A DNA stretch of 58,047 nucleotides, taken from a virus (Duplodnaviria > Caudoviricetes). Position 1 is the stretch's first letter; every line of letters starts with the position of its first letter. Below are positions 92 to 58,040 of this stretch, piece by piece. The notes under the pieces were generated by a model. It had not been told where the DNA came from, ran no database searches, and saw only the letters and a list, made by a program, of their open reading frames with translations. Location: positions 1 through 58,047 of IMG/VR virus record IMGVR_UViG_3300048582_000144. One strand, 5' to 3'. The position numbers and the translations under genes were made by a program.

Positions 92-180
92 AGCGAACGC
101 TCAAGTGGAGCTACCGCCGCGCAAGACTCCGAAAAACAAACAGGACGCTTCCGGCGGTTAGCTCTCACGACTTGTTCTCC
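92..180 (-). mobile_element. attC-like recombination site
   Basis: Minus strand: R'' GGAGAAC ... R' GTTCGCT. Arms GTG-GAGCTA-CCGCCG versus GTGAGAGCTAACCGCCG pair with two extra-helical bases and an unpaired R-L spacer. Confidence 0.88.
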
Positions 181-215
181 ATCTTTTGAACCACCAAACA
201 ACACCGAATACACCA

Positions 216-524
216 ATGAAATTCCGTAAGAAACCAGTAATCATCGAAGCGATTCAATTCACGCTCGAAACCATGAATCAGTGCTACAACTTTGTAACGT
301 GCAACCGCGCCGCAGATTGGGGGGACGATGACGGCGAAGGGAACGCTTCGCCGATCCTCAAGATTCAAACTCTCGAAGGAGTGATGACCGCTCAAATTGG
401 AGACTGGATCATCAAAGGAGTGAAGGGCGAGTGCTATCCGTGCAAGCCCGACATATTTGAGCTGACCTACGAGCCAGCAGATTCTTTGGAGAACAGAGAA
501 TTATCCCAACCGAAACCCGAATAA
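216..524 (+). CDS. conserved phage hypothetical protein (KKPV.IEA.Q / TLEG / GDWIIKGVKGE.YPCKPDIF type), cassette-borne
   Basis: Widespread phage motif set. Gene lies between GTTCTCC (174-180) and GGAGAAC (488-494); its stop codon is inside the attI-like site. Confidence 0.8.
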   Translation: MKFRKKPVIIEAIQFTLETMNQCYNFVTCNRAADWGDDDGEGNASPILKIQTLEGVMTAQIGDWIIKGVKGECYPCKPDIFELTYEPADSLENRELSQPKPE

Positions 525-530
525 TTATCC
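488..530 (-). mobile_element. attI-like site 1
   Basis: Minus strand GGATAAT-TCTCT-GTTCTCC (L box, 5-nt spacer, R box) plus a second GGATAAT 24 nt upstream; 492-530 matches 2787-2825 at 36/39 nt; no attC hairpin. Confidence 0.7.
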
Positions 531-535
531 AACCC

Positions 536-2056
536 ATGATCCACAACGACAACTGGGACGACCCAACCGAAGCGCCGGAACTCCAAGCGCCAGCCGCGCC
601 ATCGCCTCAATACCGCCGCGACATCCCCGCCGAGGCCGACGACGTGATGCGAGCCCTGCCGCACGCGCTAGGACCAGAAAAGAGCCTGCTTTCCTCAATG
701 CTCCAGGACCCGCAGGAGTTCATCGGCGTGGCCGCCGAAGAAAAGCTCACGCCCGCGCATTTCTACCTGCCCTCACACGCCACGCTCTACGGAGTTCTCG
801 TTGAACTGTTCGAGTCCGGGCAGGAGATCGAATTGGTGAGCATGATTCAAAAACTCATCGACCGCGGCCTACTCGACCGCATTGGAGGACCTGCCACGCT
901 GACCGACCTCTACACGTATTCACCCAGCCCCGGCTATTTCCGCCACCACCTCCAGCACGTCAAAGACAAGTTCGTCCTCCGGTCGATCATCCAGAGATCC
1001 AACGAGGCCATCGCGCAAGCCTACGACCAGCCCGACGAGGTGGCCGAACTCCTCGACCAGACAGAGGCCGCCATCCTCGCCATCCGCGAGACACAGGAAA
1101 CCCGCATTACAACTAGCCTGAAGGCCACTGTGGACGAGTGCCTCGATGACATTCGCCGGATCATCGAGGGTGACAAGGAAGCCAATGGTATCTCAACCGG
1201 ATTTGAAGTGCTGGACCATCTTGGGTGCTACCTGAAGCCAGCGGAGATGTTCGTGATCGCCGCCCGGCCGTCGATGGGGAAGACATCGCTCATGATGAAC
1301 ATCGTGGAACACCTCGCCATCGGAGAGTCCCGCCGGGGAATGGTTTTCAGCGTGGAGATGCGAAAGAAGCAGCTCGTGCAAAACCTTATCAACTCACGCG
1401 CCAAGTTCAATCTGGCCGCTGTCACGCGCGGACAGGTCGCCAACAAAGGCGACCTCCAGAGGATCCAGCGGGCGTCCATCGAAATCGCATCCGCTCACGC
1501 GAACCTGATCATCGACGACCGATCAGAACTCTCCATCGGCCAACTCCGAGCCGCCGCCCGCCGCGAGCACCGCAAGGCTCCGCTCCAATGGATCGCCATC
1601 GACTACCTCCAGCTCATGAAGAGCGGGTCCCGCCAATCCCGGGACAACAGAGAGCGCGAGGTTGCAGAAATCTCCGCCGGCATCAAATCCGTCTGCAAGG
1701 AACTCGGAATCCCGGCCATCGTCCTCGCCCAGCTCAACCGCGGACCTGAAGGACGGACAGGGAAGAACCTCGGGAAACCTCGCATGAGTGACCTCCGCGA
1801 GTCGGGAGCGCTTGAACAGGACGCCGACATGATCGGCCTGCTTTACCGAGAGGCATACTACGCCGCCGACGAGGAGGCAAAAGAAGCCGCCCAGGGTGTC
1901 GCACAGCTCGACCTAGCGAAGAACCGGAACGGAGCCACAGGCACCGCACCACTGACATTCATCGCGGAACTCATGCGCTTTGAGTCAGGGCACCCAGCCA
2001 AAGAACAACCCGACATGTTTGCACCCAAGACCGCCAAGAACCGATTAGACGACTGA
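536..2056 (+). CDS. dnaB: replicative DNA helicase
   Basis: LPH..PE N-terminal domain, Walker A AARPSMGKT, IDYLQLM, LAQLNR, SDLRESGALEQDAD, KNRNG. Confidence 0.97.
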   Translation: MIHNDNWDDPTEAPELQAPAAPSPQYRRDIPAEADDVMRALPHALGPEKSLLSSMLQDPQEFIGVAAEEKLTPAHFYLPSHATLYGVLVELFESGQEIELVSMIQKLIDRGLLDRIGGPATLTDLYTYSPSPGYFRHHLQHVKDKFVLRSIIQRSNEAIAQAYDQPDEVAELLDQTEAAILAIRETQETRITTSLKATVDECLDDIRRIIEGDKEANGISTGFEVLDHLGCYLKPAEMFVIAARPSMGKTSLMMNIVEHLAIGESRRGMVFSVEMRKKQLVQNLINSRAKFNLAAVTRGQVANKGDLQRIQRASIEIASAHANLIIDDRSELSIGQLRAAARREHRKAPLQWIAIDYLQLMKSGSRQSRDNREREVAEISAGIKSVCKELGIPAIVLAQLNRGPEGRTGKNLGKPRMSDLRESGALEQDADMIGLLYREAYYAADEEAKEAAQGVAQLDLAKNRNGATGTAPLTFIAELMRFESGHPAKEQPDMFAPKTAKNRLDD

Positions 2057-2060
2057 AACC

Positions 2061-2396
2061 ATGAAAACGAACCTTTGCAACAACCTCGCAGACCTCGCCG
2101 CCGTCCAGGCATCGCGCCGGCGCAACTGGACCAACGGCACGCCCGCCGACCCAGCGATGGAGGAGCGCCACCAAATTGAAATTGCGGACATCCGCGCAAA
2201 ACTTTCGGCCCACGAGAATCAGGTCTCGCAGGGAACCTCCGAACCCCCGCCCGCTCTCACGACACCATCGGGTGGTTGCGTGAGAGCGGCGGGTAAATTT
2301 CTCCGAAGGGCATTCCGGCGATTCTGGAACGCAGAGGTATCCCACGGAGACCGAGAGCGCCAGCCCGATACTCGCTCAACCCACAATCAACCCTAA
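2061..2396 (+). CDS. hypothetical protein ending inside an attC-like site
   Basis: Starts 4 nt after the dnaB stop; crosses AAC 2328-2330 in frame; stop is in the attC loop. Confidence 0.55.
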   Translation: MKTNLCNNLADLAAVQASRRRNWTNGTPADPAMEERHQIEIADIRAKLSAHENQVSQGTSEPPPALTTPSGGCVRAAGKFLRRAFRRFWNAEVSHGDRERQPDTRSTHNQP

Positions 2397-2444
2397 AACT
2401 CAACAGCAAGGCGGGTCTCCGTTGGGATGACCGTCTTGTTAGCC
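2324..2444 (-). mobile_element. attC-like recombination site
   Basis: R'' GGCTAAC ... R' GTTCCAG. Arms GGT-ATCCCA-CGGAGACC versus GGTCATCCCAACGGAGACC; extra-helical G and T on the + (bottom) strand. Confidence 0.9.
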
Positions 2445-2456
2445 TTCTTCTGAATT

Positions 2457-2819
2457 ATGAAAACGCACCGAATAGAAGAAATCCCAAGCGGATTCGATTA
2501 CTACACCACGTCCGAGCTTGATGAATACGACATCAAGAAAATTCCCAACAACGTGGAAGAACTTTGGTATTGGTATGCCTCTGCGCCATACGAAGGAACC
2601 GGACATGTGCTGATGCGGACGGATGACGGATTGTGGCACCATCACGATTGCGGACACTGCTCTTGCTACGGGCCGACCGAACGGATCAGCACAGAAGAAG
2701 GGCAACCGCTTGCCGATCTTTTGGCGCGATGCACTGGTGACTTGCTCAAAGAGTTGAAGCCGCTCACCGAGGCAATTTCTCTGGCTAACAGAGAATTATC
2801 CCGACCCGAACCCGAATAA
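2457..2819 (+). CDS. phage hypothetical protein (YEG.G ... HCSCYGP motif), cassette-borne
   Basis: Gene lies between GTTAGCC (2438-2444) and GGCTAAC (2783-2789); its stop codon is inside the attI-like site. Confidence 0.78.
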   Translation: MKTHRIEEIPSGFDYYTTSELDEYDIKKIPNNVEELWYWYASAPYEGTGHVLMRTDDGLWHHHDCGHCSCYGPTERISTEEGQPLADLLARCTGDLLKELKPLTEAISLANRELSRPEPE

Positions 2820-2825
2820 TTATCC
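2783..2825 (-). mobile_element. attI-like site 2
   Basis: Minus strand GGATAAT-TCTCT-GTTAGCC plus an upstream GGATAAT repeat; near-identical to site 1. Confidence 0.7.
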
Positions 2826-2918: not shown

Positions 2919-2957
2919 CTTGCGAAGCCGAACAGGTGAGAAACCGTCCGTAATACC

Positions 2958-3473
2958 ATGAAATCCACATCGAAGCCAGCGACGACCAAGAAAGGGAAGA
3001 CTCCGCCGCCCAAGAAAGCCGCCACCAAACGGGCAAAGAGCGGGGCCGGAAAAGAGCGTCGATTGACCGTACAACACGAACGGTTTGCAGAGCTGGTGGT
3101 TGCGGGCGAAAGCGACACCCGAGCCTACATCAAGTCTGGATGCGGGAAGACAATGGCCAGCGCAGAAAAGAACGCTTGGCGAGTGAGGGAAATTGAGGGA
3201 GTTAAAAACAGGATTGCCGAACTCAGGAAGCCGCAGACCAAGAAAACCCTGATGTCCAAGGACATGAAGCGGGGGATTGCCATGGAGATCGCCAGCAATC
3301 CGGCGAAGTCGGACATGGCGAGAATTCGGGCGATGGAACTGGATGCCAAGCTCGCCGGACACTTCGAACCCGACCGGGTGGAAGTCGAGACCGGCCCCTA
3401 CACGCTGGAAAGCATCCGAGAGAGAGCGAAGACGGTGGCAAGCCTGATGTCCCTCGCCCACACCGTGCAATGA
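2958..3473 (+). CDS. terS: terminase small subunit
   Basis: LT.QHERFAELVV.G....AY HTH motif; overlaps the start of the large terminase. Confidence 0.85.
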   Translation: MKSTSKPATTKKGKTPPPKKAATKRAKSGAGKERRLTVQHERFAELVVAGESDTRAYIKSGCGKTMASAEKNAWRVREIEGVKNRIAELRKPQTKKTLMSKDMKRGIAMEIASNPAKSDMARIRAMELDAKLAGHFEPDRVEVETGPYTLESIRERAKTVASLMSLAHTVQ

Positions 3474-5284
3474 CGGCAGCCGAGACAGTCGCCCGGTATG
3501 CACGCGGGCTGCGAGAAGCCAGCGAAGACGAGATCATGGCTATGGCCCTGAACTCGCCGGCCGTTCACTTCTCCTGCTTCATGGAGATCCGCAACAAGGC
3601 CAACCAGCGGATACAGCCGACCCCGAACATCCTCCAGCTTCGCATGAGCGAGGCTTACGAGACGCTTCGAGACCTGGGCGTGAAGGTCCGCATCATCGTG
3701 GTAAAGCCCCGTCAGGTAGGTTGCAGCTCGTTCGCGTCCTACATCCTGTATCACCACGGGATGCGCGACCCTATTGAGGGAATCAGCATCTCCGACGTTA
3801 AAAAGCACTCGTCGGAGATCATGGACAAGCTGGAAGAGTATGCCGGGGCCGACCGCTACCCGTGGGGGCACCGGATGATCCAATCGTCCACTCACTCGCT
3901 CGAATGGAGCAACGGCACCAAATGGACGGTGGACTCAGCCGAGAACCCGGACGCCGGCGTCGGTGGCACCCGGCAAGGCGGGCACTTCTCGGAGGTTGCC
4001 AAGTGGCCGCAGACGCTCACCCGCAATGATGCGAAAACCATGTCCGCTGTTCTCCCGTCACTCTCCGGCGAGGGATCGGTGGTGTTCGCGGAATCCACGC
4101 CGGAAGGGGCGCAAGGCTGGCTGTATTCCACCTACCTCGAAGCCGTTACCCTCGAACAGTTCCTTGCCAACTGGAAAGCCGGGATACGTCCATCCGAACA
4201 GTGGGTCAAAGTTTTTGCAGCCTGGCACGAGTTCGCCGAGCACTCGAAGCCTGTCTCGGATTACGAGCGGAACCAGATTCTCGAAACGCTGGACGCGACC
4301 GAGAGCGAGGGCATGGCAAAGCACGGATGGACGGTTGAACAGTTGGCTTGGAGGAGGGAGACGATCAAAGCGGTTTGTAACGGCGACCCAAAGACGTTCG
4401 CCTTCTACTACCCCACCGATGACGTTTCGTGCTGGCTGCACTCAGGGACACCGCGTTTCGACCTCGCCAAGCTCGCCGACTGGAAACACCGAGCCGAGAC
4501 CATCCAGCCGGATCGAGGGTTCTTGGTCAAACAGGACACCGGGCACATCCTTTGGCAGCGCATGCGCGACGGAACCGGCGACATCGAAATGTGGGAGGAC
4601 CCGAAGGAAGGCATGGCCTACCTGATCGCCTGCGACCCGGCCACCGGGAAGAGCCAGACGAAAACCGCAGACCCGGACGCCACCAGCATCCTCGTTCTCC
4701 GCGGGAAATACTACGACCCGGACCTGCAACGGACGTTCCCGACGCGCGTTGTCGCCCGGGTGAAAGCCCCGTTCTTCGAGGACGACGACGTGGTCGGCAT
4801 GTATATCGACCGACTCAGCAGGTATTTCGGGCGCTGCATTTGCGCCCTCGAAGTCAATCAAGGGTGGGGAGTGCTCCGCGTGCTCAAGGACGCCAGCGTG
4901 CCGTTGTATAAGCGCATCGTGGAAAATTTGAAGACGAAGCAGACCGAGGAGCAATTCGGATTCAAGCTCGACGACAAGAACCAACGCCGGATGCTCATCG
5001 ACGGGCTCGCCGCCGCTCTCCGCACCGAAGAACTGGACATCCCATGCCCTCACGTCCTGCACCAGCTTATGAAATTCGTGAGGAAACCGAACGGGAGGGC
5101 CGAGGCTGCGCCGGGAGAGCATGACGACGATTGCATGAGTTTGGCTATGGGATGGGAATGTATCCCGATGGCCACCGTGTTTACCCGCCGGGTGGTCCGC
5201 GACGTTGATCCGCCGGACATGGCCAAGCCGGGGCGGAGGCAAAGCGGATGGCGAGTTGTGAACGCCGTGAAACGGAAGTGGTGA
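3470..5284 (+). CDS. terL: terminase large subunit
   Basis: VKPRQVGCS Walker A, HFSEVAKW Walker B, ESTPEG coupling motif, IACDPATG and HDDDCMSLAM nuclease motifs. Confidence 0.92.
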   Translation: MTAAETVARYARGLREASEDEIMAMALNSPAVHFSCFMEIRNKANQRIQPTPNILQLRMSEAYETLRDLGVKVRIIVVKPRQVGCSSFASYILYHHGMRDPIEGISISDVKKHSSEIMDKLEEYAGADRYPWGHRMIQSSTHSLEWSNGTKWTVDSAENPDAGVGGTRQGGHFSEVAKWPQTLTRNDAKTMSAVLPSLSGEGSVVFAESTPEGAQGWLYSTYLEAVTLEQFLANWKAGIRPSEQWVKVFAAWHEFAEHSKPVSDYERNQILETLDATESEGMAKHGWTVEQLAWRRETIKAVCNGDPKTFAFYYPTDDVSCWLHSGTPRFDLAKLADWKHRAETIQPDRGFLVKQDTGHILWQRMRDGTGDIEMWEDPKEGMAYLIACDPATGKSQTKTADPDATSILVLRGKYYDPDLQRTFPTRVVARVKAPFFEDDDVVGMYIDRLSRYFGRCICALEVNQGWGVLRVLKDASVPLYKRIVENLKTKQTEEQFGFKLDDKNQRRMLIDGLAAALRTEELDIPCPHVLHQLMKFVRKPNGRAEAAPGEHDDDCMSLAMGWECIPMATVFTRRVVRDVDPPDMAKPGRRQSGWRVVNAVKRKW

Positions 5285-5291
5285 TCCCTCA

Positions 5292-5329
5292 TTGCGCCCG
5301 TATTTCCCGCGTGATCCGTCGCGCAAGAT
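5292..5329 (+). promoter_or_regulatory. putative late promoter upstream of the giant protein gene
   Basis: TTGCGCCCGTATTTC at 5292; CAAGAT starts 32 nt after the box start. Confidence 0.65.
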
Positions 5330-5335
5330 GCGGGC

Positions 5336-8300
5336 ATGAGCAGCCGCTTTCGCACCCAGACCGGAGTCGAGGACTATCTTTCCAAATTCAAGGCATCCAC
5401 CGCCACCGCCGACCAACAGTCATCCGAGGCCACCGGAGAGCGGGCGCAAGCCGCGTTCGATGCGAGCGCCATGGACAAGGAGCGCCAGCAGCAGCAGGCC
5501 GCCGCCGATGCCCAAGCGAAAGCCGCCCAACGTCAGGCAGACGCGCAGCGCAGGGCCGCCCTCGCGCAAGAGGATGCCCAGCAGGACCTTCGATCCATCC
5601 AGATCGAGCAGCAGCGCCTCACCATCGAGCCGGATTACAAGGCAGCCAGCGATGCCCACGCCCGAGCAAAGGCAGCCCGCGACAAGTTTGCAGACGACCA
5701 GATCGAGCAAAGCGGGGATTTCTGGGTGAGGAAGGACGCCAAGACGGGCGGTATCACGCCGCTGTCAGCGCAGGAGGCGCAGGCCAGGAAGGACGCTCGC
5801 AGGGACGCCGAGAACGCTTTTGCCGAGGAAGAGAAGCGATTCCAGCCCAAGAATCAGGAATGGGAAGCGCTCCAAGCCGCCCGCCGGAAGGCCGAGTTCG
5901 ACCGGCTGAAGATCCAAGAGCGCAGACTGATGGAGAAGGCGGGACTCTCGCCGCAGCAGCAGGACCCGACCGCGGCAGTCACCCCCGAGAACCTGCCAGC
6001 CCCGACGAACGCCACGGAATCCCGCATGCGGTTCTACGCGGACCAGCAACAGGCACGGATGAACACCTACGCGGACCAGCAGGGACGCCCGCGCACCGTC
6101 TCGCCGCTGACCGCGAACCTCGTCAGGCTGGAGATGCAGAAGCGAGCCATCGAGGCCCGCGCCAAGCTCGGAGACATCGCACCCGAGGAAGCCGCAGCGA
6201 AGATCGAGGCGGCCACCACGAAGCAAGCCCAACTCACCGAGCAGGCGAAGGAGCAGGCTCGGACCAGTCTCACAGCGAAGCTCCAAGGGCAGGATCCGGC
6301 GGCCATCGCCGCGGCACCGCCAAAGCCCGCGCCCCGCGAAGCACTCTCCAAGGCGCTGCAAGAGGCGAAGCTGTTCAGTTCTGCCACCGCCGCGATGGGA
6401 CAAGCCACGGACAAAGGCATCCGGCGCAGGCCAGACGGCAACTGGGACCTACCGGCCATGACCCCGCAGCGTGACAACATCATTGAGGCAGCGGTGGGCG
6501 GGATTGTGCAGACCGTCGCCCAAAAGTCCGGTGCCCGTCTCGACTTCGCCGGCATGGGTGACGAGCAGCAGGCAATCCAAGCCGTGTTCCACAAGTTCCA
6601 GCAGGACAACAACCTCAGCGACGAAGAGGTGCAGGCGGCATGGGCCGACCTTGGTAACATCAATCGCAAGTTCGGCAAGGACGAGACCCACCGCGTGCTG
6701 TCCGATGGCTCGCTCCACATCAACGAGGCGAATACCGCATGGCTCGACCCCAACAAGGCCCGCGGCATCATCGCCCGCGCCAAGACCACGCCGGAGGCCA
6801 AGCGCCAGGCGGAAGCCAGACTGCCAGAAAGGCAGGAGACCATGGCCAAAGCCAAGGCCGAGGCCTACGACATGGCATCGGGGGCCAACGTGTTCGGCAA
6901 CGACGTTCCCGCGTTCTCTTCATTCGCCAAGAAGCAAGGCGGGGACCTGCCCGCGGCGGTCAAGGCCTACGAAGACAGGTATCTCAACAAGCGCGGGAAA
7001 GGCCAGATCAAGCTCGACGAGTGGGAAGCGGCATGGACCGCAGGCAAAATGAACGTCATCGAGACTGTTCTAGGCCTTGCCGGAATGGCCGGCATCGAGC
7101 CAGCCAGCCAGGGAGCCGCCGCGTTCTCCGAAGCATCCCAAGGCATCAAGACCGGCGCAGGAGCGGATGGCATCGACTCCGCTGTCATCGAGCAAATCCC
7201 AGCACTTGGAATGCAAGTAGGCCTTGCCCGTGGAGCCGGTGCCGTCGTTGGCGCGGCAACCAAGTCAGCAAAGGCAGCCCAAGCCGCAGGATCCGTCACC
7301 GCCGTTGTGACATCGGGAGCACAATCGGCCGGCATGACCTACGCCGACGAGCGGGCGAACGGAACATCTCACGAAGAGGCACAGGAGAAAGCCCGCAAAT
7401 CCGGCATCAACACCGCGGTCATCACCGGAATTTTCCAAGTGGCAGGCCTAGGAGGCGTCGAGAAGGTCGCCGCTGGCAAGGCCGTTGGTGAAGTGACAAT
7501 GCGCGACATCCTTGGATCCACCACGAAGGCAGAGCTTGCCACCAACACCCGGAGATTTGCCGCGAACGTGCTGAAGGCAACCGCGGGCGAGGCGACGGAA
7601 GAGGGCATCGACGAACTCACCCAAGCGTTCATCATCGCCGACCCCGACACCAACCTCGCCGACGCATGGGGCAATGCCATCGAGGCCGCCAAGATCGGTG
7701 GATTGATCGGTGGAGTCGTGGAGACCGGATCAAAGGCCGTTGGATCAGGCACCACCCCCGAGCAGCGCCACCAGCAGCAGCTCGCCAGCATCGCCCAGAG
7801 GATCCAGACCGATGCCGTCAACCCGGACCTTGTGGCCGATGCCATTGCCGAGATTGACCCGACCGAGCGCGTTCCCACCCCGGACGAACTCAAAGAAGCC
7901 CGCCAGCTTGTCGCCCCGGACCAGGACGCATTCCGCAACCACCAGAAGCAGGCCGAAGCATACAAGGCCGCCGTCGCCGCGAAGGATTGGAAAGGTGCCC
8001 GCGCCATCGACGAAGCGATGCAAGCCGCATTCCCCGACACAGAGACCAACACCGTGCGGGACACTGCCGATGCCGTGCTTCTCGTCAGGGAGCTTGGAGA
8101 ACAGGACGTTGTAACGAAGGACGCTTTTAACCAAGCCCAGGCCGCATTCAACGAGGCGATGGTTTCCGGCGACCGGGAGGCGAAGGCAATGGCCGGCCCG
8201 GAACTCGCAGCCGCTCGAAGCGCCAGGCAAGCACACCTTCAAACTCGCGCGGCCGTCAAGATCGCCAGCGGCATGGAGATCACCGCCCTGACCGATGCCG

Positions 8301-11300
8301 AAGCCCGTGCCATGGGATTCACCCGCGAAGCCGATGGTGGGCTCGCCCCGATGAAGGCCAAGGAGCTTGCCGACAATGGACTGACCGCCCCACTCATGCG
8401 CCCCGCCGCCGATGGCTCCGCGATCCTCACCGACGACGTGGTTGCCACCGTCCGCGCCACCAGCGAGCGCGCCGGCCGCCGCGTGAAGCTCAACGAGCAA
8501 GAAGCCGCGGACCTCGCCCAGAAACGATTTGATGCAGCCAATACCCCACCACCCGCCACCAATGAGCAAGACCAACAAGGACAAAGCCAAGCAGCACCAT
8601 CTCCCCAAGCTCCACAATCCACACCCACCAGTTCGGAATCACCGGGTGGAACTGTTCGAGATGGAACCGGACAGCCCGCCGCAGCATCTTCAGATGGAGC
8701 CGGAGTTGCACCGGAGGCGGCGGTTCAAGAGGTAGAAGACCCGTTCGAGCCGACAGCCGAGGACGAAGCGGCGTTGTTGGCGGAATTGGAAGCGGAGATG
8801 GCGGGAGAGGACGTTGATGTTAACGAAAGCCCGGTTTCTGCAACACAAGAGCCGGAAGCGTCAACGGATGCACCACAAGCGCCGACTCCAGAACCCACCC
8901 GAGCAACCCCGGAATCCATCCGATCCGCCAAGCAGGTTCAAGCCAACATCCAGGCCGCCGTTCCTCGCCTCAAAGGCAAGGTGACCACGCAGGACGGCAC
9001 CCGGCCATCCGGCGGAGTCTTCATTGGCCTCGACGGACGCATGACCATCTCCCCCCGAGACATCGCCGGCGAGATGCAGCGCAATGGGTGGGACGAGGCC
9101 ACAGCCACCCGCATCCTCACCGACCTTGCCGTCAGCCACGAGGTTGCACACATCGCCCAGGTGGATGCACTCCGCGCCCGATGGAAGGAAGAGAAGCCCC
9201 GCATGTCCTTCGAGACATACTTCCTGAAGTTCTACGGCGAGCAATACGCCGAGATGGGAGGAAAGGGAGGCCAGATCGACATCGAGGCTGCCAACATCTA
9301 CGACCCGACCGCAGGGAACCCGCAATGGCAGTCACTCAGCGCCGGCCAGAAGGGAGCGGAGATTTTCCGCATGTTCCTCGAAAACAAGCTCACCGGCACC
9401 ACCAGCGAGCTTTCCCGCGAGATCGAGCGGCAGGGAGTGACGAAGGGATTCATCCAGCTCATCAAGGACGCCATCGCCTACCTGAAAGGCGTGATCGACA
9501 CCCTCCCCGACCAAGCAAAAGCCCACCTCGAGGAACTCGAAGCGTTCTATCGCGAACTCACCCTTTCCCCCGCGTCTCAAAGTGACACAACACCGACGCC
9601 CGAAGAGGCCATCACACCAGACGCCGGGGAATCCCCTTCCAAGCCAGCCAAGAAGCAGATCGACAGCCCCGCCCGCCGCGAGGCGTTCCGCCTGCTTCGC
9701 TCCGGGGAGCTGATCGTCATCGACAAGATCATCGGCGGCAAGATACAGGCCCCGCCCACGGGCATGCTCAAGATCGCCAAAGCGGCCCTCGAAACCGGTA
9801 AGGCCACCCAGAAGCAGCGAGACATGCTGGATTTCTGGGACAACGCCGGATTCAACCAATACATCCCGAAATACGCATTCGGCACCGACTTCAACGGGAA
9901 GGTCGCGCAGGAGCTTCATGGCATGCTCTTCACCCAGGACAAGAGCAACACCGCCTTGGACGATTGGGCAGGACTGCTTGGCGACAAGCTGACCAACGAC
10001 GAAGCCATGCTGGAAGTCATGGGGGAACTCACCCGGATTTCCAAGGGCATCACCACCGAGACCGACGCCCGCAACCCGAACAAGGAGGAGGCAGCACCCG
10101 AGGAGATCGCCGCGGCAGAAGCCGAGGCCAAGGCAGGGAAGAAGGAAGGGACCACACAGGCGAAGCAGGATAAAGCATTCGACGCCGCCCAAGCCAACCC
10201 GAGCGATGCCGCCATTGGCATGGATGCGGCAGACTTCAGCCCTGACATGATCGGCGGGACCATCACCGTGGACGGCGAGCCGATGCTTGTTGCCGACGTT
10301 GAGACGGATTCGATGGGAATCACCACTGCGGTTGTCTTGCAGAACGGCAAGCGGTTCGGGCGGCAGGTTCTCGAAGACGGCGAGGTTGTGTTTGTGGAAG
10401 AGGACGCGCCGGAGGTGGAGGCGGAACCCGTTGACGATCAGGTGCGCGCCGAAGAATCAACGCCGGTTGATGAAACGCCAAGCCCGGTTGAGGAAACTGC
10501 TGCCGAGAAGTTCGATAGAGAGCTTCGCGCAGAACGCCGTGCCGAGCGACTGGAAATGATGCAGCGGCCCATTGCACAGCAGTCTCCGAAAGTCTGGTAT
10601 GACGAGGAAGCCGCCAAACGTGGGATCGGCCCCGACGAACTCACCGCTGACGAGATCCGAGTTTACAAGGGCATGTGGAACAGTGCCCGAAAGGCCGCTC
10701 TAGCCAAGAACGAGCCGGTTATCGACAACATGCAGGACGACGGGAAGCCGCCAAAGAAAGGCTACGTTCGGCGCGGCGACATCTGGTATCCGCCAACTCA
10801 GAAGCCCGCCTCTCCAGGAAAATCAGTCGAAAACCTGATTCAAGAATACCGGAAGATCCTTCCCGACTGGAGATCCAAAGAAGACACCGATGACGACATC
10901 AAGTTCGCCATGCGAACGATCAAGAGACTAGCAAAGCCAGATGTAAACCAGAAGGCAGCGACCGAGGCATTGAAGCTGATTCCAGAGTTCGGGACCGATG
11001 CCCCGCTCTACCACCTTGGGTTGAAGGACGTGCCCAAAACCAAAACGGAATGGATGCCCGACGTGAGCAAGCGGACAAGCCCGCTCGACAAGGAGGACTT
11101 CCTTCAGGAGATGAAGGACTTTCTCGCTCCTCCCAAGAAGCCCGACCTGCCCTCGCCAATTACCTACATGCAGCTCAACGCCAGATTCCGGGGCGTCGAT
11201 ATGCCCAAGGACATCACCGCGAGATACAACAAGGTTTACAACCGACTTGGCGCGAAGGGTATCCAGTGGCTCGCCAACACGATCCGCCGGGACGCAAAGT

Positions 11301-14300
11301 TGTCGATGGGGTCAGACAATTATTTCCCGATCATTGCTGATCTTGAGGCGAACGTAGATTTGGCGGAGCGATATCGCGAGGAATGGGACACCGAAGCCCC
11401 GACCTCCGCGATGGACCGCAAGAACACCGACGCGAAGGAACTCTTCGCCGACGACGGCGGATTCAAACTCGGACAGGAAACCACCACGGACGGCGCGAAG
11501 GTCGCAGCGGAGCGCAAGGCGAAGGAGGAAGCCAAGGCAGCGGCAGACGCGGCACAGCGGAGTCTGTTTGATGAAGGCCCCACCCTCACCCCGGAAGAGC
11601 AGGCGTTGAAGGATGCGCTGGAAGGACTATTCGCCTCCCGCTCCCGCGACACCGGGACCCCCGACCTGTTCGCCCCCGAGAACCTTGCACGCCCCTCCAT
11701 GAAGGAGGTGAAGACCCCGAGCAACAAGTCAGCACTCGGAGCCTACCGCGCACTCACAGCGAAGAAGCAGGCAGGCAAGACCCTCAAGCCCGAGGAAGAG
11801 CAAGACCTACTCGAAGCCGAAACCGCCCTTGGCCAGAAGATGGCATTCGACATGGCACCGGAGAATCTGAAGGGCAAGGATACGGACCTTCTGCAAGCGG
11901 CCATCGTGGAAGCGACTATGCCGCAGGCCGCGCGTTCGATGCGTGCGGTGCAGCAAAGCATGTTCATGGGAGAGGAAGGCAGGGGAGGGCAGCAGAGCTT
12001 GTTCTCGTCGGCCTCTCCTAATCCTGATTTCCAAAACCTCCGCCGATCTATCACGACCGAACTCACCAAAACCCCCAGCCAATACCAATATGAACCAACA
12101 CAAGAAACCAGACCCGACATCGCAGCGCTCCTTGAGAAAAGCGGCCTACAAAGAGTTGTCCCTACCAACCTTCGACTTGACACCGATCAACTCGAAGAGA
12201 TTTCAGGCGCTCAAGTTGTCTTCGTCAGGGAACAAAATCCAATCGGATTGGTCTCTGCAAATACCCTGAGCGTTCCAAGGGTTATCATCATCAACGCCGA
12301 CACCACCGCGGCGAGCGTAGGCTATTTGATCGCGCACGAAATGACGCACGTTGCGCAAAAAGTCAGCGCGGCACCAAGCGGCCCGATCATCAAAAGAATC
12401 ACCGAGCTTGCCAGCAAAGAAGAAATCACAGCGATGTTCAAAACATTGCTCTTCAAGGGTTACGACAACAACAAGACACTAATAACCGCAGAGATTCACG
12501 CTCATCTTGTCGCGGATGCGGTCGCCGGAACCAACACGCTCGGACTTCAAGAGTTGGCCAACAGAGAGCAGCTTACATCCGAGCTGGTGGCATACTTTGA
12601 TTCACTTCCAAGACTCAATCCAGACGCCCGCAAAGGACAGTTGTTCGCAGAAGCAGCGGAAAGCCCGCCGTCTGGAGAAACGCTCAGAAGCTCCGCATCC
12701 CCCGCCCCTGACTACTCCGCGCCCATCCCGCCGGCAGTCATCGCCAAAATGTGGGGATCGCTCACCGCCCTGGTGGAATCCGGCCAAGTCACCTCCCCCG
12801 AGACGCTGGCGGCCACGTTGAAGAAGTTCGGCCCCGGAGCGCCGAAGCTCTCGCAAGGATTGTGGAGCATCATTTCCGCAGTGAAGGGCGAGGCCCCGAC
12901 CGCTCCCGATTGGGCTGGCATCTACGGTGCGAGCGTGCAGACTCCCGGGGATGGACAGCAGGTTCAGACTGGTGAAGGCGCTGGCGACGTTGTTGCTGGA
13001 GGCGGCGAAAGCCGCGTGGCGGTGGGTGAGGCGGCGGAGGTGAATGCCGCGCAGTGGAAGATTCCAAATGACTACACCGGAATCTGGCGCGAAGCTGTTG
13101 ACGCTGGCCTGCCGCTGGCGCAGATCATCGAGCCGCCCGCTGGATGGAAATCCACGCCGCGCTCTGTCAACGTCTTCACCGACCACAAGACCAAGCAGAA
13201 GGTTGCGAGGTTCGAGCATTTCTTCATTCACCCTGACGGCCGCCACGGGATGATGATCGAGCAGGACATCAGCAACGGAGTTTCCAAGCCCATCGTGGCC
13301 AACGTGATGACCCGTGACAACTCCATGGGGGTAAAAGGATGGGACATCGCCAAGAACCAGTTCGACGGCACGGTTGAGCAGGTAGTGAAGGAGATTCAGC
13401 GGCGGAATGACTACATCAACATGAAGGAAGGCAAGGAAGGGTGGAAGCTGGAAACCCAGCCAGCTTCATCCGACGACACCGCCGAGACCTACGCCAAGAG
13501 CGTTCAACGCAACCTGAAGCACATGGGCACCAAGGGCGACGAATGGTCCGTCGTTCCGTTCACCGGCAGGGAGATCGAGAACCCCGAGGGAGGCCGCCCG
13601 ATGATCGAGCAGGATTATTTGAGCGTTCAGGGAGCTGGATGGAAGCAGGCCCCGACACTCTACCCCGGCACCAGTCAATCCCCGGCCTGCGGATGGTGCG
13701 GCAAGGCCCCGGTGAAGTATCTGTTCGGGATCAAGAACGACTCGAAGAAATGGTCGATGATGGTCGGATCCGAATGTATCACCCACTTTTCCGAGAAGTC
13801 TGGAGATGCCCAATCGCAGGAAGCCAAGGCATCATTCAACCGCGCAGCGTGGCAATCGCTGGATGACTCGTTGAAGGAGATTAAGAAAGAGCTTTCAACC
13901 AGCACGTCGGATTCGTATTACCGATACACCACCACATGGTCGAGCAAGGCCGCCTCCGACCTCTACGAGCAAGGCACGAAGCTCCGTGGCAAGTTGAGCC
14001 AGAAGGACAGCTCAGACGGCGCGTTCACGTCATGGCAGCGCAAGAACGGCCAGGCAGTGGAAGCGCTCGTCACCAAGATCCGTGACGAACTGCAAGCCGA
14101 CGATGCGAAGAAATACCGGGTGAGGAAGCGCGAAGGATTCATTCGCAATCTGGAATCAGAGATCACCAACGGGAAATCCTCCTACGGTCGCCGCTACCCG
14201 CTTTCGGAAGCCGACATCGAGCGGAACACCCGGCAGATCGAGGCATACAAGAAGGAGATTGCGGAGATCACCGCGCCGGTTGCGGTGGAGGCGGACCAAC

Positions 14301-44747: not shown

Positions 44748-44751
44748 AGCC

Positions 44752-45237
44752 CTATTTTGATCCCTTGGCATAGAACGTCCGCAGGAAGTCCAAGACCTCG
44801 ACCGCGATCTTGGAATAGTGTGGGTCGGTGCCCTCTTCCCATTTCATCACGATCCGGGTGACTTCGGCCCCGATCTTCGGGAGCCGTTTGGTCTCGACCC
44901 AAAGAGGACCCGGGTCAGTCGATACTTGAATCTCAAGCAGGGCCTCAACGATCTTTGGAAACGATGGATGCTCGGACATCTTGCGGGTTAGCTCTACGGC
45001 CATAGGCGAAACCTGAACGCTCTTATCCACGAACTGAGCAAGCCGGATACCGAGAAACGATTCGATCTTTTCAACCTGGTCATCGGAAAGGTTTTGCAGC
45101 TTTCGATTCATCAGTTTTGAGACCCAAGCCTTGCCCAAACCCATAAAATCGGCGAGTTGAGACTGATTTATTTTTGGCTTCGTTGGATCACGGAACCTCT
45201 TCTTTATCAAAGCAATAGTGGCGGGAGTGACTTTCAT
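44752..45237 (-). CDS. XRE-family HTH repressor (CI-like)
   Basis: INQSQLADFMGLGKAWVSKLMN; divergent from the early operon. Confidence 0.85.
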   Translation of the reverse strand: MKVTPATIALIKKRFRDPTKPKINQSQLADFMGLGKAWVSKLMNRKLQNLSDDQVEKIESFLGIRLAQFVDKSVQVSPMAVELTRKMSEHPSFPKIVEALLEIQVSTDPGPLWVETKRLPKIGAEVTRIVMKWEEGTDPHYSKIAVEVLDFLRTFYAKGSK

Positions 45238-54207: not shown

Positions 54208-54833
54208 AACCACTTTTGCCGCCCGCCATGGTCCCCACATCACTCAAAGGAAAGGAATTCGAAACGCTGATTCTCGAAGCTGCAAGGCGCGAGGAAGCCA
54301 GTGGAGGATTGACTCTCTCTCGCTACGGCGTGCAAGGCGTCATCTTCGGGGGTAAGACTATTCTCGTCCCCTCACTTCCAGACTTTGATGGATGCTTGGC
54401 CGGCGGGCGGCAAATCATCATCGAGGCAAAGTGCATGCAGGGTGCTTCGTTCCCCCTCAATGACGACAAGTTCAAGAACCGACAGTATGCCCACATGGCA
54501 AAGCGTGCTGAGTTCGGCGCACTATGCTTCCTTCTAATCCACTTCGCGGAACGCCGTCTAATGTCCAAGAACGATCCGGGCATGACAATTGCCGTTCCCG
54601 TGAGTGCCCGCCATCCGTTCTGGATGCTATACGAACAAGGCGAACGCAAAAGCCTCCCGCGCGACGAAGCGCAATCCATTGGGCAAATCGTCCCTTGGAC
54701 CATCCCCAGAGGCTGCCGCAAAGCGCTCCCTGACCTTCTCTCGTTCCTGTGGCCGGAAGCCCGCAGTATCCAACTCGAAACAGCAAAACCAAGCTCTCCC
54801 CAGCCCGGCGAACTCCCCTTGGACAACGACTAA
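54204..54833 (+). CDS. recU: RecU-like Holliday junction resolvase
   Basis: GKEFE, PDFDG....G..IIIEAK, NRQY; stop codon lies inside the first attC. Confidence 0.78.
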   Translation: MKPLLPPAMVPTSLKGKEFETLILEAARREEASGGLTLSRYGVQGVIFGGKTILVPSLPDFDGCLAGGRQIIIEAKCMQGASFPLNDDKFKNRQYAHMAKRAEFGALCFLLIHFAERRLMSKNDPGMTIAVPVSARHPFWMLYEQGERKSLPRDEAQSIGQIVPWTIPRGCRKALPDLLSFLWPEARSIQLETAKPSSPQPGELPLDND

Positions 54834-54910
54834 GCCCATGCACGCCGACCCAAACATATCGAATCCAAGCAGCAACGCCCCCGGCGTTGCATGCGGCGAC
54901 CTTGTTCTGG
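54821..54910 (-). mobile_element. attC-like site (distal end of the array)
   Basis: R'' CCAGAAC ... R' GTTGTCC. Arms GCC-CATGCA-CGCCG versus GCCGCATGCAACGCCG. Confidence 0.85.
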
Positions 54911-55122
54911 ATTGCGATTTCTGCGGTAAGCCTGCCGAGTCCGTGGTAACTCATCAAGGCACAGGTAAAATATGGAGAGCCTGCACCGAGTGCATCGACA
55001 TCCGGCGCATGAGGCGGCGGTCTACGCCCTACAACGTAGAAATTATCCAGAACGATCAAGGCCATGCGATCCGGACCGGGAGCGCCGCGCCGCCAACACC
55101 CAGAACTAACGAATCACCCTGA
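54838..55122 (+). CDS. small zinc-finger-like protein (CDFC...CTEC), cassette-borne
   Basis: Starts inside one attC and stops inside the next; core ends GTTCTGG/CCAGAAC. Confidence 0.6.
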   Translation: MHADPNISNPSSNAPGVACGDLVLDCDFCGKPAESVVTHQGTGKIWRACTECIDIRRMRRRSTPYNVEIIQNDQGHAIRTGSAAPPTPRTNESP

Positions 55123-55171
55123 AAATCCAACAAGGGAGCGGGTCCGGGTCGCATGCGCTGCCTTGTTATGC
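55047..55171 (-). mobile_element. attC-like site
   Basis: R'' GCATAAC ... R' GTTCTGG. Arms GC-CATGCGATCCGGACC versus GCGCATGCGACCCGGACC. Confidence 0.87.
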
Positions 55172-55203
55172 TCTTCGAGAATCTCCGAAAACTATACGAC
55201 AAT

Positions 55204-55401
55204 ATGAAAAAATCAACACTCTACGCATTAATCCAAGGGGCCTCAATAGGTGTGGTTGTTCTCACGCTCGGGTATAATCCGCTGCAATGGGAGTGGTGGG
55301 CATTAATTATCTCGCTGAACGTAGCTTTGGTTTGCAGTTCTCTGCATAACGCCGATGTGGATACGCGGCGCGCAGATGCCCGAACTCAACAAGGCGGCTA
55401 G
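55204..55401 (+). CDS. small two-helix membrane protein, cassette-borne
   Basis: Core ends GTTATGC/GCATAAC; AT-rich. Confidence 0.6.
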   Translation: MKKSTLYALIQGASIGVVVLTLGYNPLQWEWWALIISLNVALVCSSLHNADVDTRRADARTQQGG

Positions 55402-55430
55402 TCGCCGTCGCCAGCATGCACTTGTTAGCG
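55344..55430 (-). mobile_element. attC-like site, chimeric
   Basis: 55347-55410 is identical to 57028-57091, but the last part of the arm differs and pairs poorly; R'' CGCTAAC. Confidence 0.8.
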
Positions 55431-55474
55431 GGCCGAATTACCGAACAACTCAACCAACACGAAAGACCAAAACT

Positions 55475-55702
55475 ATGGGACAAGCCAAACAGCGCGGAAC
55501 CTTCGAGGAACGCCGCCAGCAATCAATCGACCGCGCCGAAGCGGAGAGGCTGGAACGCCAACGCAAGGAAGCGGAATGGTGGAACTCTCTCACCGACGAG
55601 CAAAAGGAAAACGTGCGCCAGAACCGCGCGCGCCGCGCCCGAAACATGCAGGCAATGGCCGCGTGGATGGGTCTTGGCTACTCACTCGGCGGGAGGTTCT
55701 AA
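55475..55702 (+). CDS. small phage protein (MGQAK.RGTFEER motif), cassette-borne
   Basis: Core ends GTTAGCG/CGCTAAC. Confidence 0.7.
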   Translation: MGQAKQRGTFEERRQQSIDRAEAERLERQRKEAEWWNSLTDEQKENVRQNRARRARNMQAMAAWMGLGYSLGGRF

Positions 55703-55706
55703 GTCC

Positions 55707-55821
55707 CGCTAACGCTCAAACTGAGCCATGCGGTTGCTTGGCGCGATCAGTGCCCGCACGCAGTGCGGAAATAGCACTGATCGTGACAAGCAATCGCATT
55801 GGCTCCAGTGCTTTGTTAGGC
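55707..55821 (-). mobile_element. attC site (long, well paired)
   Basis: R'' GCCTAAC, R' GTTAGCG. CTG-AGCCA-TGCGGTTGCTTGGCGCGATCAGTGC versus CTGGAGCCAATGCGATTGCTTGTCACGATCAGTGC. Confidence 0.93.
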
Positions 55822-56178
55822 TCATTTTTCATTTAGCTCGTTGTTATGGCGTTCGATTTCTTTAAGGTATCCGCTTTCAGGACGATGCCTCTGCCTCAAT
55901 CGATTCATAATCTCTTCTCTATCGTCCTTTGATCGGGGTCGTTCTGGAAAAAAGTAGAAAATTGACCGGTAATACAGCTCGCTGGTGATACTCTCACGCG
56001 GTTTGTGGTCATGCGTGCTCTCGTATCCAATAATGTAGAGCGTGGAGTGTAATCCGGCGGGATATAAAATGGGACCACGCCTTGCGCCGACTGCGTTCGC
56101 GCCGGCAAAAATCGGAGCGGCAAGATACGCGAACCCCACGGCGGCGCACGTCAGGATGATTACGGCTCTGCGTTTCAT
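55822..56178 (-). CDS. exported/membrane hypothetical protein, canonical-orientation cassette
   Basis: GTTAGGC-AGAAGA-ATG start; stop abuts R''; hydrophobic N-terminus. Confidence 0.75.
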   Translation of the reverse strand: MKRRAVIILTCAAVGFAYLAAPIFAGANAVGARRGPILYPAGLHSTLYIIGYESTHDHKPRESITSELYYRSIFYFFPERPRSKDDREEIMNRLRQRHRPESGYLKEIERHNNELNEK

Positions 56179-56184
56179 TCTTCT

Positions 56185-56311
56185 GCCTAACGTCAAAGGC
56201 CTGGCACCCCTGATCGGGAGCGAGCCTTCGACTGTGGTGTAAGGTTTATCATGCCAGTGGTCAATCGAACTCAAAGCGTATCAGGGGTTGTCCAGCGCCG
56301 GCTTGTTGGGC
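56185..56311 (-). mobile_element. attC site
   Basis: R'' GCCCAAC, R' GTTAGGC. GGC-CTGG-CA-CCCCTGAT versus GGCGCTGGACAACCCCTGAT. Confidence 0.9.
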
Positions 56312-56315
56312 TGTC

Positions 56316-56675
56316 TTATTGAGTCGGTCCATCGGCCACGAGTAAAGATGATCCTGCCTGTAGAACCAAGGCGGAATGGAACCAGATGAGAATCAATCCA
56401 AGACCGATTCCGCTAATCAATGTCCACCGCTTCGAGAACGATCCCGTATCATCGCGTTCACTCCAGATGGTGTATACTACCCATGCGAGTGGAATCAGAA
56501 TGAGGGTAAAACCCCAATTCCGGACGAATAGCATTAGAAGTGGAATATCGGCGAACTCATCAGGATATCCTCTGACTTTGAGTGTGACACCGAGCATGAG
56601 GGAACCTGTCATAATGATGCCCGCATGTAGGGCTCCAATAATCCTCTGCAATCGATACTCATCACGAAAGATCAT
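56316..56675 (-). CDS. three-helix membrane protein, canonical-orientation cassette
   Basis: Core ends GTTGGGC/GCCCAAC; stop 4 nt from R''. Confidence 0.78.
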   Translation of the reverse strand: MIFRDEYRLQRIIGALHAGIIMTGSLMLGVTLKVRGYPDEFADIPLLMLFVRNWGFTLILIPLAWVVYTIWSERDDTGSFSKRWTLISGIGLGLILIWFHSALVLQAGSSLLVADGPTQ

Positions 56676-56697
56676 CGAGTTAGCTTTCTATTATTTT

Positions 56698-56755
56698 GCC
56701 CAACATCCGCCGATCAGACACGCCGTAGGCGTTGTCTGTATCGCGCTGGTTAGCA
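56698..56755 (-). mobile_element. minimal 58-bp attC site
   Basis: Minus strand TGCTAAC-CAGCG-CGATACAGACAACGCC-TAC-GGCGTGTCTGATCG-GCGGAT-GTTGGGC. Confidence 0.93.
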
Positions 56756-56766
56756 CTCTTCTAAAA

Positions 56767-57030
56767 ATGAACTACTCCACAATAATCGAACGCATCTCTC
56801 CCGACTCACTCAGCCGGGTAGAATACCGTTACTGGCAGCGCGCCGAAATGCGCATGGAACTGGACTGGATAGTCCACCAGACGCGCCCTACAAAACGGCA
56901 CGGCTGGCGTCTTGAAAAACGCTGGTCGCGCCTGCAATCGCGAAACAACAACATGGCCAGAGAGGAGCCACCGCAGGACGTAAAAGACGAACTGCGCAAG
57001 AAAATCAACGATGCGCTCTCTTTCTGCTAA
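56767..57030 (+). CDS. hypothetical protein (RPTKRHGW motif), cassette-borne
   Basis: Core ends GTTAGCA/TGCTAAC; stop TAA lies within the core. Confidence 0.7.
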   Translation: MNYSTIIERISPDSLSRVEYRYWQRAEMRMELDWIVHQTRPTKRHGWRLEKRWSRLQSRNNNMAREEPPQDVKDELRKKINDALSFC

Positions 57031-57111
57031 CGCCGATGTGGATACGCGGCGCGCAGATGCCCGAACTCAACAAGGCGGCTAGTCGCCGTCGTATCCCACG
57101 ACTTGTTCCCC
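57025..57111 (-). mobile_element. attC site
   Basis: R'' GGGGAAC, R' GTTAGCA. GTGG-ATACG-CGGCG versus GTGGGATACGACGGCG. Confidence 0.9.
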
Positions 57112-57140
57112 GTTGCCCGAATCACCGAAAGACTAACATC

Positions 57141-57953
57141 ATGGAAAACTCTAAAATCGAATGGACTCACCACACCTTCAATCCGTGGAACGGATGCACG
57201 AAGGTATCGCCCGGCTGTCTGCACTGCTACGCCGAAACGCTCATGGATACCCGATATGGTCGGGTGAAGTGGGGAAAAGGACAGCCACGCTCTCGCACGG
57301 CTGCTGAAAACTGGCGCAAGCCGAAGCAATGGAACAAAGCCGCCGACGGTGCCGCCGAGCGTCCACGGGTGTTCTGCGCGTCACTGGCTGACTGGCTCGA
57401 CGACGAGGTGCCGATTGAGTGGCTGGCGGATCTGCTGGAACTCATCGCGGCAACTCCGAATCTTGACTGGCTGCTACTCACCAAACGCCCCGAAAACTGG
57501 TATCGCCGCGTGAGCCTCGTAGATGGCGAAATGGCGGAAAGCTGGATCGACTGCATCGACATGCCCGAGCGTGGAACTATCCCCGAAAACGTATGGATCG
57601 GAACAAGCGCGGAAGATCAAACGCGATGGGATGAGCGGATGCCGCTACTCATGGAAATTCCCGCCCGCGTCCGCTTCGTGAGTGCGGAGCCGCTGGTCGG
57701 CAGAATCCACATGGGCGAGCTTCGCCCCGACTGGCTGATCGTCGGCGGTGAGAGTGGACCAGGCGCAAGGCCCATGGAACGCGAGTGGGTGGAAATCCTC
57801 TGCGACCAATGCGACGACCGAACCGCCTTCCACTTCAAGCAGTGGGGAGGCGTGGACAAGAAAGCCACTGGCCGCGTGCTGAATGGCCGGACATGGGACG
57901 AATTACCATCTTCGGGGAACGCCGAGTCCATCCACCCCGAATCGAAGCCTTAA
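57141..57953 (+). CDS. phage Gp37/Gp68 (DUF5131) radical-SAM-like protein, cassette-borne
   Basis: SKIEWT..TFNPW.GCTKVSPGC.HCYA, LLTKRP, SAEPL, GGESG..ARPM, FKQWGG; core ends GTTCCCC/GGGGAAC. Confidence 0.92.
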   Translation: MENSKIEWTHHTFNPWNGCTKVSPGCLHCYAETLMDTRYGRVKWGKGQPRSRTAAENWRKPKQWNKAADGAAERPRVFCASLADWLDDEVPIEWLADLLELIAATPNLDWLLLTKRPENWYRRVSLVDGEMAESWIDCIDMPERGTIPENVWIGTSAEDQTRWDERMPLLMEIPARVRFVSAEPLVGRIHMGELRPDWLIVGGESGPGARPMEREWVEILCDQCDDRTAFHFKQWGGVDKKATGRVLNGRTWDELPSSGNAESIHPESKP

Positions 57954-58040
57954 AATCATGAACCAGAATCAAACTGAATCGAAGCCGCCAAGCGTTGAAG
58001 AACCCCGTAATGAGGGGTTGGATGGGACGCCTTGTTCGGC
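57914..58040 (-). mobile_element. attC site
   Basis: R'' GCCGAAC, R' GTTCCCC. GTCC-ATCCA-CCCC versus GTCCCATCCAACCCC; the loop holds one stop and one start codon. Confidence 0.88.

Follow-up and report, generated by a model that had tools for sequence, protein, structure and literature searches.

Two attI-like sites at cassette ends flank dnaB in an integrase-less phage genome

The phage record IMGVR_UViG_3300048582_000144 (IMG/VR; Duplodnaviria, Caudoviricetes) raises the question of what two near-identical 39-mers are, which flank its dnaB gene and stand exactly where gene cassettes of the integron type end. The window that we examined is the entire virus record, a linear sequence of 58,047 bp that is estimated to be 96% complete and carries nearly all of its genes on the + strand. 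In integrons, the attachment site attI has an L box, a 5-bp spacer and an R box plus accessory direct repeats, and it heads the cassette array. An original prediction, made from the letters of the window, had read the 39-mers as attI-like sites, and our analysis indicates that they are probably orphan copies of an integron attI, acting as double-stranded docking sites for cassette capture.

We aligned the two sites, designated site 1 (492-530) and site 2 (2787-2825), and confirmed that they are identical at 36 of 39 positions (three mismatches), while none of 100 shuffles gave two matches. The likeness stretches over 59 nt at 83% identity (477-535 and 2772-2830, repeat family D8). AATTATCC, which reads GGATAAT on the minus strand, occurs five times in the window against 0.55 expected, and four of these are the paired boxes of the two sites (499-506 and 523-530 in site 1, 2794-2801 and 2818-2825 in site 2), 24 nt apart. 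As had been proposed, the minus strand of each site reads GGATAAT, TCTCT and GTT, the proximal box being 5 nt from GTT and the second box 24 nt away. The 39-mers have no significant fold on either strand, in agreement with a double-stranded site and with the earlier claim that neither forms a hairpin; folding of the 64 nt around each site on both strands gave -2.5 to -5.9 kcal/mol (z = -0.73, 0.06, -2.31 and -1.59), and the lone stem was a mini-stem of 7-8 bp (TTCTYTG/CAGAGAA) across the junction, outside both boxes. Each site forms the last 33 nt of a + strand open reading frame (ORF), namely 216-524, which ends in NRELSQPKPE and a stop codon, and 2457-2819, which ends in NRELSRPEPE and a stop codon. 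The identity between the sites goes on for 6 nt beyond the stop codon, the codon changes between the copies are two synonymous and four non-synonymous, and site 1 ends 5 nt before the dnaB ATG (536). A terminator-like hairpin after site 2 (around 2837-2866) was spotted by eye and is absent from the list of the computed scan.

The window contains ten imperfect hairpins of 58-127 nt, whose ends have the form nnnnAAC ... GTTnnnn (starting at 54821, 55047, 55344, 55707, 56185, 56698, 57025, 57914, 92 and 2324). At all nine junctions, the GTTnnnn closing an attC and the nnnnAAC with which the following element starts were exact reverse complements of each other, a pairing that is the mark of cassettes circularising through the R''/R' stem. 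As a control, occurrences of CTTGTT were scored for a partner 60-1000 nt downstream, which was present for 7 of 12 on the + strand and for 1 of 31 on the minus strand. After the last two hairpins (92 and 2324), the next element is not a hairpin but the 39-mer, which abuts the 7-mer. Thus, GGAGAAC (488-494) at site 1 is the exact reverse complement of GTTCTCC (174-180), the end of attC 92-180, and GGCTAAC (2783-2789) at site 2 is that of GTTAGCC (2438-2444), the end of attC 2324-2444. Since the variable four bases differ at three of four positions between the two sites, each set fitting its own partner, the sites represent independent junctions rather than a single one that was copied. Both sites accordingly have a G/TT crossover and a TTnnnn complementary to their own R'' box, with a partial fit to RRRY. 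With its ten hairpins, the nine paired junctions and no integrase nearby, the window holds a real integron-type cassette array, of the kind termed a cluster of attC sites lacking an integron integrase (CALIN).

The polarity of the array was read against the aadA1 cassette of plasmid R100 as the standard. In the R100 aadA1 attC, the 5' arm of the coding (top) strand has two extra bases (GTT[C]AAGCCG[A]CGCCG, extra bases in brackets), whereas seven of the ten window attCs have at least two extra bases on the 3' arm of the + strand, the first lying 3 bp after the 5-nt spacer and the second, in five of the seven, 5-6 bp further in. The exceptions are the attC at 57025, with the opposite polarity, and those at 55047 and 55344, which are ambiguous. 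This placement indicates that the + strand is the reactive bottom strand, that the cut falls between AA and C at the 5' end of each hairpin and that the array is read from right to left, and attI is therefore expected at the right-hand end, the position of the 39-mers. By attC polarity, both 39-mers indeed stand at proximal array ends. The left-end R boxes GGACAAC (54821) and CTGGAAC (2324) have no GTT partner upstream, as expected at distal array ends, and such partnerless R boxes are confined to left ends. The proposal that site 1 heads an array running off the window start was borne out by attC 92-180 and by the array of the same polarity at 54821-58040.

The limits of the cassettes are also visible in other proteins. 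ORF 2457-2819 has no stop codon of its own and extends ten codons into site 2; ten homologues were found. In the five nearest of these (55-88% identical), ...AISLAN is retained, at times in a slightly altered form, and all likeness ends after it, the sequences going on with A and a stop, SVLNEP..., NQKLTV..., SQSCGA... or NIKLTD.... The point of divergence is the N encoded by the junction AAC. Furthermore, P0003 and P0004, which were found with the ORF3 query and have unrelated bodies, end in N-AEVSHGDRERQPDT(R/H)(Q/S)THNQP, the peptide that ORF3 gains by reading into attC 2324-2444. These breakpoints and tails establish that the unit 2330-2788 is found in other contexts, with both limits at AAC codons. 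The single cassette that had been predicted at site 2 is thus upheld by its chain junction, by the homologue breakpoints and by the shared attC-encoded tails, and the start of the sites at the cassette-ending AAC by exact 7-mer complements, five breakpoints and the tails of two unrelated proteins. At site 1, phrog_419 spans residues 1-92 of the 102 residues of ORF 216-524, the final ten being encoded by the junction codon and the site, and DNA similarity to homologues in other phages ends near 481.

We then searched for related phages. An alignment search with the large terminase (TerL) led to L029 and L030, overlapping records of one phage type with a TerL 54% identical; TerL as a single query retrieved no relatives, the DnaB query gave only L003, which lacks the motif, and a P0002 query against viral contigs had no match. 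The L030 array (3440-6825) has five of six exact chain junctions and five of six attCs of the window polarity, and it ends in AAC followed by AGTTAAATTC..., 49 nt before the ATG of an integron integrase (IntI). Its right end was read as AGAGAAC followed by AGTTAAATTCTACGG...TATATCCAAC..., and AGAGAAC with AGTTAAATTCTACGGACAAAAGTCGGTATATCCAACATCCCCCAAATCC leads at once to the ATG at 6875. The ORF at 6875 encodes a 323-aa integron integrase (TIGR02249 at 287.3 bits with a cut-off of 265, PF00589 and PF13495). By attC polarity, the order is a divergent intI, then attI, then cassettes, which is the classical layout; the array end of L030 adjoins intI, as in L029, and so provides a positive control for the assignment of attI to the right-hand end of the array. 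The cargo of L030 is also inverted, as for the C-5 methylase at 4525-5454, and L030 carries an ORF3 homologue at 2926-3165. When the six L030 attCs were aligned with MAFFT, the consensus structure obtained was poor (10 pairs, -0.39 kcal/mol).

A further relative, L024, has a RecU 68% identical to that of the window and two copies of AAC followed by AGCTGAATTAGACC... at cassette ends, with identical 24-mers AACAGCTGAATTAGACCGAACCCC. In front of one 24-mer stands the exact partner of a GTTCACC located upstream; in front of the other is a 6/7 partner (G.T) of GTTGGGT, and with an exact ACCCAAC 45 nt further on, this junction is less certain. In an alignment of the five sites (two each from the window and L024, one from L030), AACAG and AATT are invariant, and the L030 site carries another TATCC box, spaced roughly as the second box is in the window sites. 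In all three phages, the last cassette ORF crosses AAC and takes its stop from the site (AGT TAA, AGC TGA, or AGA GAA ... TAA after ten codons). L023, with a RecU 78% identical, has neither the motif nor an array beside RecU.

We compared the sites with known attIs such as attI1 of R100. Like these, the window sites show no significant hairpin, as would suit a double-stranded site, lie at the proximal end of the array, have a G/TT crossover and pair their TTnnnn with the R'' of the first cassette; an inverted box lies a few bases from the crossover, with a further box repeat upstream, and in L030 the site adjoins a divergent intI. Unlike attI1, the two copies stand 2.3 kb apart with replication genes between them, and no intI is found near either copy or in the record. 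Both window boxes point the same way, while in attI1 the repeats DR1 and DR2 share the orientation of the R box; the window sites are embedded in ORF 3' ends, to which they give the stop codon, and no sequence likeness to attI1 was seen.

Several results weigh against assigning the 39-mers to attI. Searches for a tyrosine recombinase (PF00589 and the L030 IntI as a query) found none in the 58-kb record, of which a piece could be missing at an estimated 96% completeness, and neither window site adjoins a divergent intI. The likeness to the L030 attI is modest, with 15 of 76 columns invariant in the five-site alignment, and the second box is not evident in L024. GTTCTCC and GTTAGCC match GTTRRRY just partly. 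Searches for the 39-mer elsewhere gave only chance matches in viral, genome and metagenome sequences: all five stretches in viral contigs with the exact 17-mer were unrelated, the single viral match to a pattern of 20 specified bases was an unrelated coding tandem repeat in a low-GC (guanine plus cytosine) phage, and the four genome and eight metagenome matches to this pattern were all unrelated, those from metagenomes all being low-GC. The occurrence of the 39-mer beside intI in genomes, which would have supported the original prediction, was thus not observed. The predicted empty site 2 junction was likewise not found among ORF3 homologues, the one close homologue having a different C-terminus, and an NRELS-like tail was present in 0 of 59 RecU homologues. 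Finally, ORF 216-524, ORF 2457-2819 and the DUF5131 gene lie on the bottom strand, opposite to classical cargo. The attI-like reading of the sites is well supported, by the paired junctions, the polarity by the aadA1 standard, the mobility of the site 2 cassette, the L030 array end beside intI and the two L024 sites, and is limited by the lack of an integrase in the record and by the modest likeness to the L030 site.

The orientation of the cargo was unexpected. Only the two small ORFs 55822-56178 and 56316-56675 are in the top-strand (classical) orientation, and the cargo known from phages (phrog_419 and DUF5131, with the C-5 methylase and ASCH of the relatives) is inverted with respect to aadA1-type cassettes. 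The inverted cargo runs in the same direction as phage transcription and as the L030 intI.

If the 39-mers are attI copies, IntI would cut the folded bottom strand of the attC of a circular cassette and the double-stranded 39-mer between AA and C, and the cassette would be inserted between the last codons of a backbone gene and the site. Site 2 would have taken one cassette (2330-2788), and site 1 would head an array with one cassette at the least, and probably with nine or more should the right-end array be part of it. Both sites would overlap the 3' ends of backbone genes, the last cassette ORF reading through and taking its stop codon from the site. Without the cassettes, RecU (...LPLDN) and ORF3 (...RRFWN) would each continue in frame into the RELS... 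tail, and the closest RecU and ORF3 homologues end within a few residues of the predicted fusion point. Since the record has no intI, capture or excision today would depend on IntI supplied in trans, either by co-infecting kin (L030, for example) or by the host, which is probably a Verrucomicrobium. We infer that IntI binds the GGATAAT boxes and acts in trans, and that insertions have occurred in this lineage. Likewise, capture would have taken place at these sites in this genome, rather than attI-plus-cassette blocks having been imported.

The import of such blocks is an unlikely alternative, in which attI and its first cassette came from intI-bearing kin by homologous or illegitimate recombination, and the copies are passive scars with no capture here. 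This would fit the lack of intI in the record, and the gene order indeed varies among relatives: the L030 intI stands beside homologues of 53228 and 53854, and in L023 RecU is followed by replication genes. An exact 64-nt repeat in two attCs with unlike 3' halves also points to recombination in the array that is not due to IntI. However, the two sites, for all their identity, abut different cassettes, each with an exact complement of its own R box, which two IntI events fit better, and L024 too has two identical sites with different cassettes. Much less probable is that the 39-mer is natively a gene end or regulatory box which by chance offers an IntI of the host a good non-canonical target, comparable to attG, the genomic GWT sites outside integrons at which IntI inserts cassettes and for which the minimal site is 18 bp (Loot et al., bioRxiv 10.1101/2022.09.11.507474). 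According to this preprint, IntI1-3 insert at many genomic GWT sites, some as efficiently as at attI, the IntI1 hot spots have a CRGM motif at positions 6-9, and the inserted cassettes can be expressed from nearby promoters. As in attG, the window sites would be double-stranded targets cut once at GWT; they have no adjoining intI and overlap ORF 3' ends. In contrast, attGs are unrelated genomic sequences, whereas the window sites are near-identical and resemble the attI of a relative, with AACAG..AATT and a second TATCC box in common with the L030 array end beside intI. Moreover, GTT is present and CRGM is absent at positions 6-9 of the presumed original right halves (GAAT and CAAG), although the motif may be specific to IntI1 and may not suit other IntI.

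A role without recombination is the least credible of the explanations, with very little chance of being right; the 39-mers would then encode a conserved C-terminal peptide (NRELSxPxPE) or be a DnaA-box-like or operator element flanking dnaB. Both copies are in the same frame as the ORF ends, the opening six bases of the DnaA box are presumably similar to TTATCC, and the distal GATAAT of site 1 is part of a single sigma-70-like match on the minus strand. All of this would leave the exact junction logic unexplained. The peptide was rejected as homologues of ORF 2457-2819 lack the tail, phrog_419 stops at residue 92 of 102 and the conservation passes the stop codon. The DnaA-box or operator idea was also rejected, with nothing in its favour beyond the presumed TTATCC resemblance; the sigma-70 scan found one match against 1.0 expected.

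Returning to the attI reading, we propose only tentatively, as something that may well prove wrong, that a phage clade, probably infecting Verrucomicrobia, runs integrons of its own with backward cargo, in which accessory and anti-restriction genes are swapped, and that attI was copied and uncoupled from intI in the present phage. In such a clade, each cassette would have its attC first and its ORF towards attI, so that phage transcription would pass through the array; the swapped genes would be the C-5 methylase, ASCH, DUF5131 and a Lar-like protein. The dnaB-ORF3 block would lie between two attIs as if by attI x attI recombination, and capture would rely on IntI lent by co-infecting kin or the host. 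A host in Verrucomicrobia is suggested by the names that RecU homologues carry, including Luteolibacter, and by the resemblance of the dnaB DNA to Akkermansia phages.

Cassette clusters in phages have been described by Qi et al. (2023, PMC9892861), whose main text describes 17 CALINs from a set of 10,705 NCBI phage genomes and phage attCs that recombine with attI1 through IntI1, leaves the entry route of the arrays open, and suggests that they might have come in by off-target recombination, homologous or illegitimate, at GTTRRRY-like motifs. The present phage resembles these in having attC-bounded cassettes and no integrase. It differs in that its array ends are defined, repeated and matched to the L030 attI, whereas a docking site at the array end is undescribed in that main text, where none of the terms 'opposite orientation', 'reverse orientation' and 'Verrucomicrobi' appears either. 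Our literature search, which covered article texts, gave no account of an orphan or duplicated attI in phages or of inverted cargo. The integron attI is thus a known kind of site, and our comparison supports that its being orphaned and duplicated in a phage is what is new. For integrase-less phage clusters, whose entry route has been open, defined and repeated ends offer a concrete mechanism, namely attC x attI capture with IntI possibly supplied in trans; cargo inverted relative to classical cassettes and sites that give stop codons to incoming genes are further features seen here. If this holds, the device with which bacteria capture anti-phage defence cassettes would serve phages for gene capture as well.

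The features of the locus are collected in Table 1.

Table 1. Positions of the docking sites, cassettes and adjoining backbone genes in the window
Feature	Position	Strand	Remarks
Site 1, attI-like docking site	492..530	-	crossover 493/494 (AA/C on +, G/TT on -)
Site 2, attI-like docking site	2787..2825	-	crossover between 2788 and 2789
attC of first cassette at site 1	92..180	-	AGCGAAC ... GTTCTCC on +
First cassette at site 1	98..493	-	attC and ORF 216-524 (+)
attC of single cassette at site 2	2324..2444	-	R boxes CTGGAAC and GTTAGCC on +; two extra bases (T, G) on + 3' arm
Cassette at site 2	2330..2788	-	attC and ORF 2457-2819 (+, phrog_8792)
Right-end cassette array	54821..58040	-	polarity same as at sites 1 and 2
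attCs of right-end array	54821-54910, 55047-55171, 55344-55430, 55707-55821, 56185-56311, 56698-56755, 57025-57111, 57914-58040		
Cargo of right-end array	57141-57953	+	DUF5131
Cargo of right-end array	55822-56178, 56316-56675	-	ORFs
dnaB	536..2056	+	DnaB_C and DnaB N-terminal domain; backbone gene between the two sites
ORF3	2061..2396	+	backbone gene; final 22 residues (N + AEVSHG...) encoded from the AAC junction into the inserted attC
RecU-like Holliday junction resolvase	54228..54833	+	backbone gene at the distal end of the array

The stop codon of the RecU-like gene lies 6 nt past the in-frame AAC of the outermost attC. A mutual homology of RecU and ORF3 was considered and rejected, the two proteins not being homologous. 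The record also contains a terminase-like gene (3470-5284) with 22-26% identity to phage large terminases, and a tRNA gene search of it found none.

Within the array, 55347-55410 and 57028-57091 form the exact 64-nt direct repeat (D5), which covers the 5' arm and loop of attCs 55344-55430 and 57025-57111, whose 3' arms differ; the copy at 55344 folds poorly as a whole element. As IntI crossovers between AA and C would exchange attCs in their entirety, the repeat has the look of gene conversion or of homologous exchange within the array. In the window and relatives, most R boxes have a pyrimidine-rich TTCTYT before them (for example at 473-487, 2776-2782, 55338-55343 and 56179-56184). Its minus-strand form is a purine-rich AGAGAA just past TTnnnn, directly upstream of the 55822-56178 ATG, and to judge from this position it may be a ribosome-binding stretch for classical cassettes. 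The fifth AATTATCC (55041-55048), which has AAC and 6 nt before it, shares bases with CCAGAAC, the R box of attC 55047. The minus-strand sequence of the cassette beginning at this point thus opens with TTCTGGATAATTTCTACGTTG, a string like the docking sites (55029-55053), and the region may be a third, degenerate site carried within a cassette.

In L030, a cassette at 5570-6049 (minus) holds two small ORFs of 90 and 65 aa that are oriented classically. The region upstream of them is AT-rich and no Pfam match was found; the two could be a self-expressed pair such as a toxin-antitoxin. The L030 large terminase (9962-12646) has 894 aa compared with 604 aa here, and the block inserted in its C-terminal part looks like an intein or homing insertion.

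Elsewhere in the window, the motif GTTGCGCCCGTA occurs seven times with at most one mismatch against 0.24 expected (2878, 5291, 23516, 25677, 31758 and 41010 on +, 15532 on -). Several of the + copies lie 50-60 nt upstream of ORF starts (terS, 25736, 31805 and 41074), which makes the motif a candidate phage promoter or regulatory element. A minus-strand ORF at about 44752-45432 faces a divergent intergenic region, with GTTTCC/GGAAAC repeats at 45260-45320; this region (44750-45560) resembles a repressor-operator switch, though the record has no integrase. Finally, the ORF of 5517 aa (5336-21889) contains a 300-nt direct repeat that is 96% identical (12712-13011 and 16027-16326), together with further internal repeats (D1, D10 and D12).

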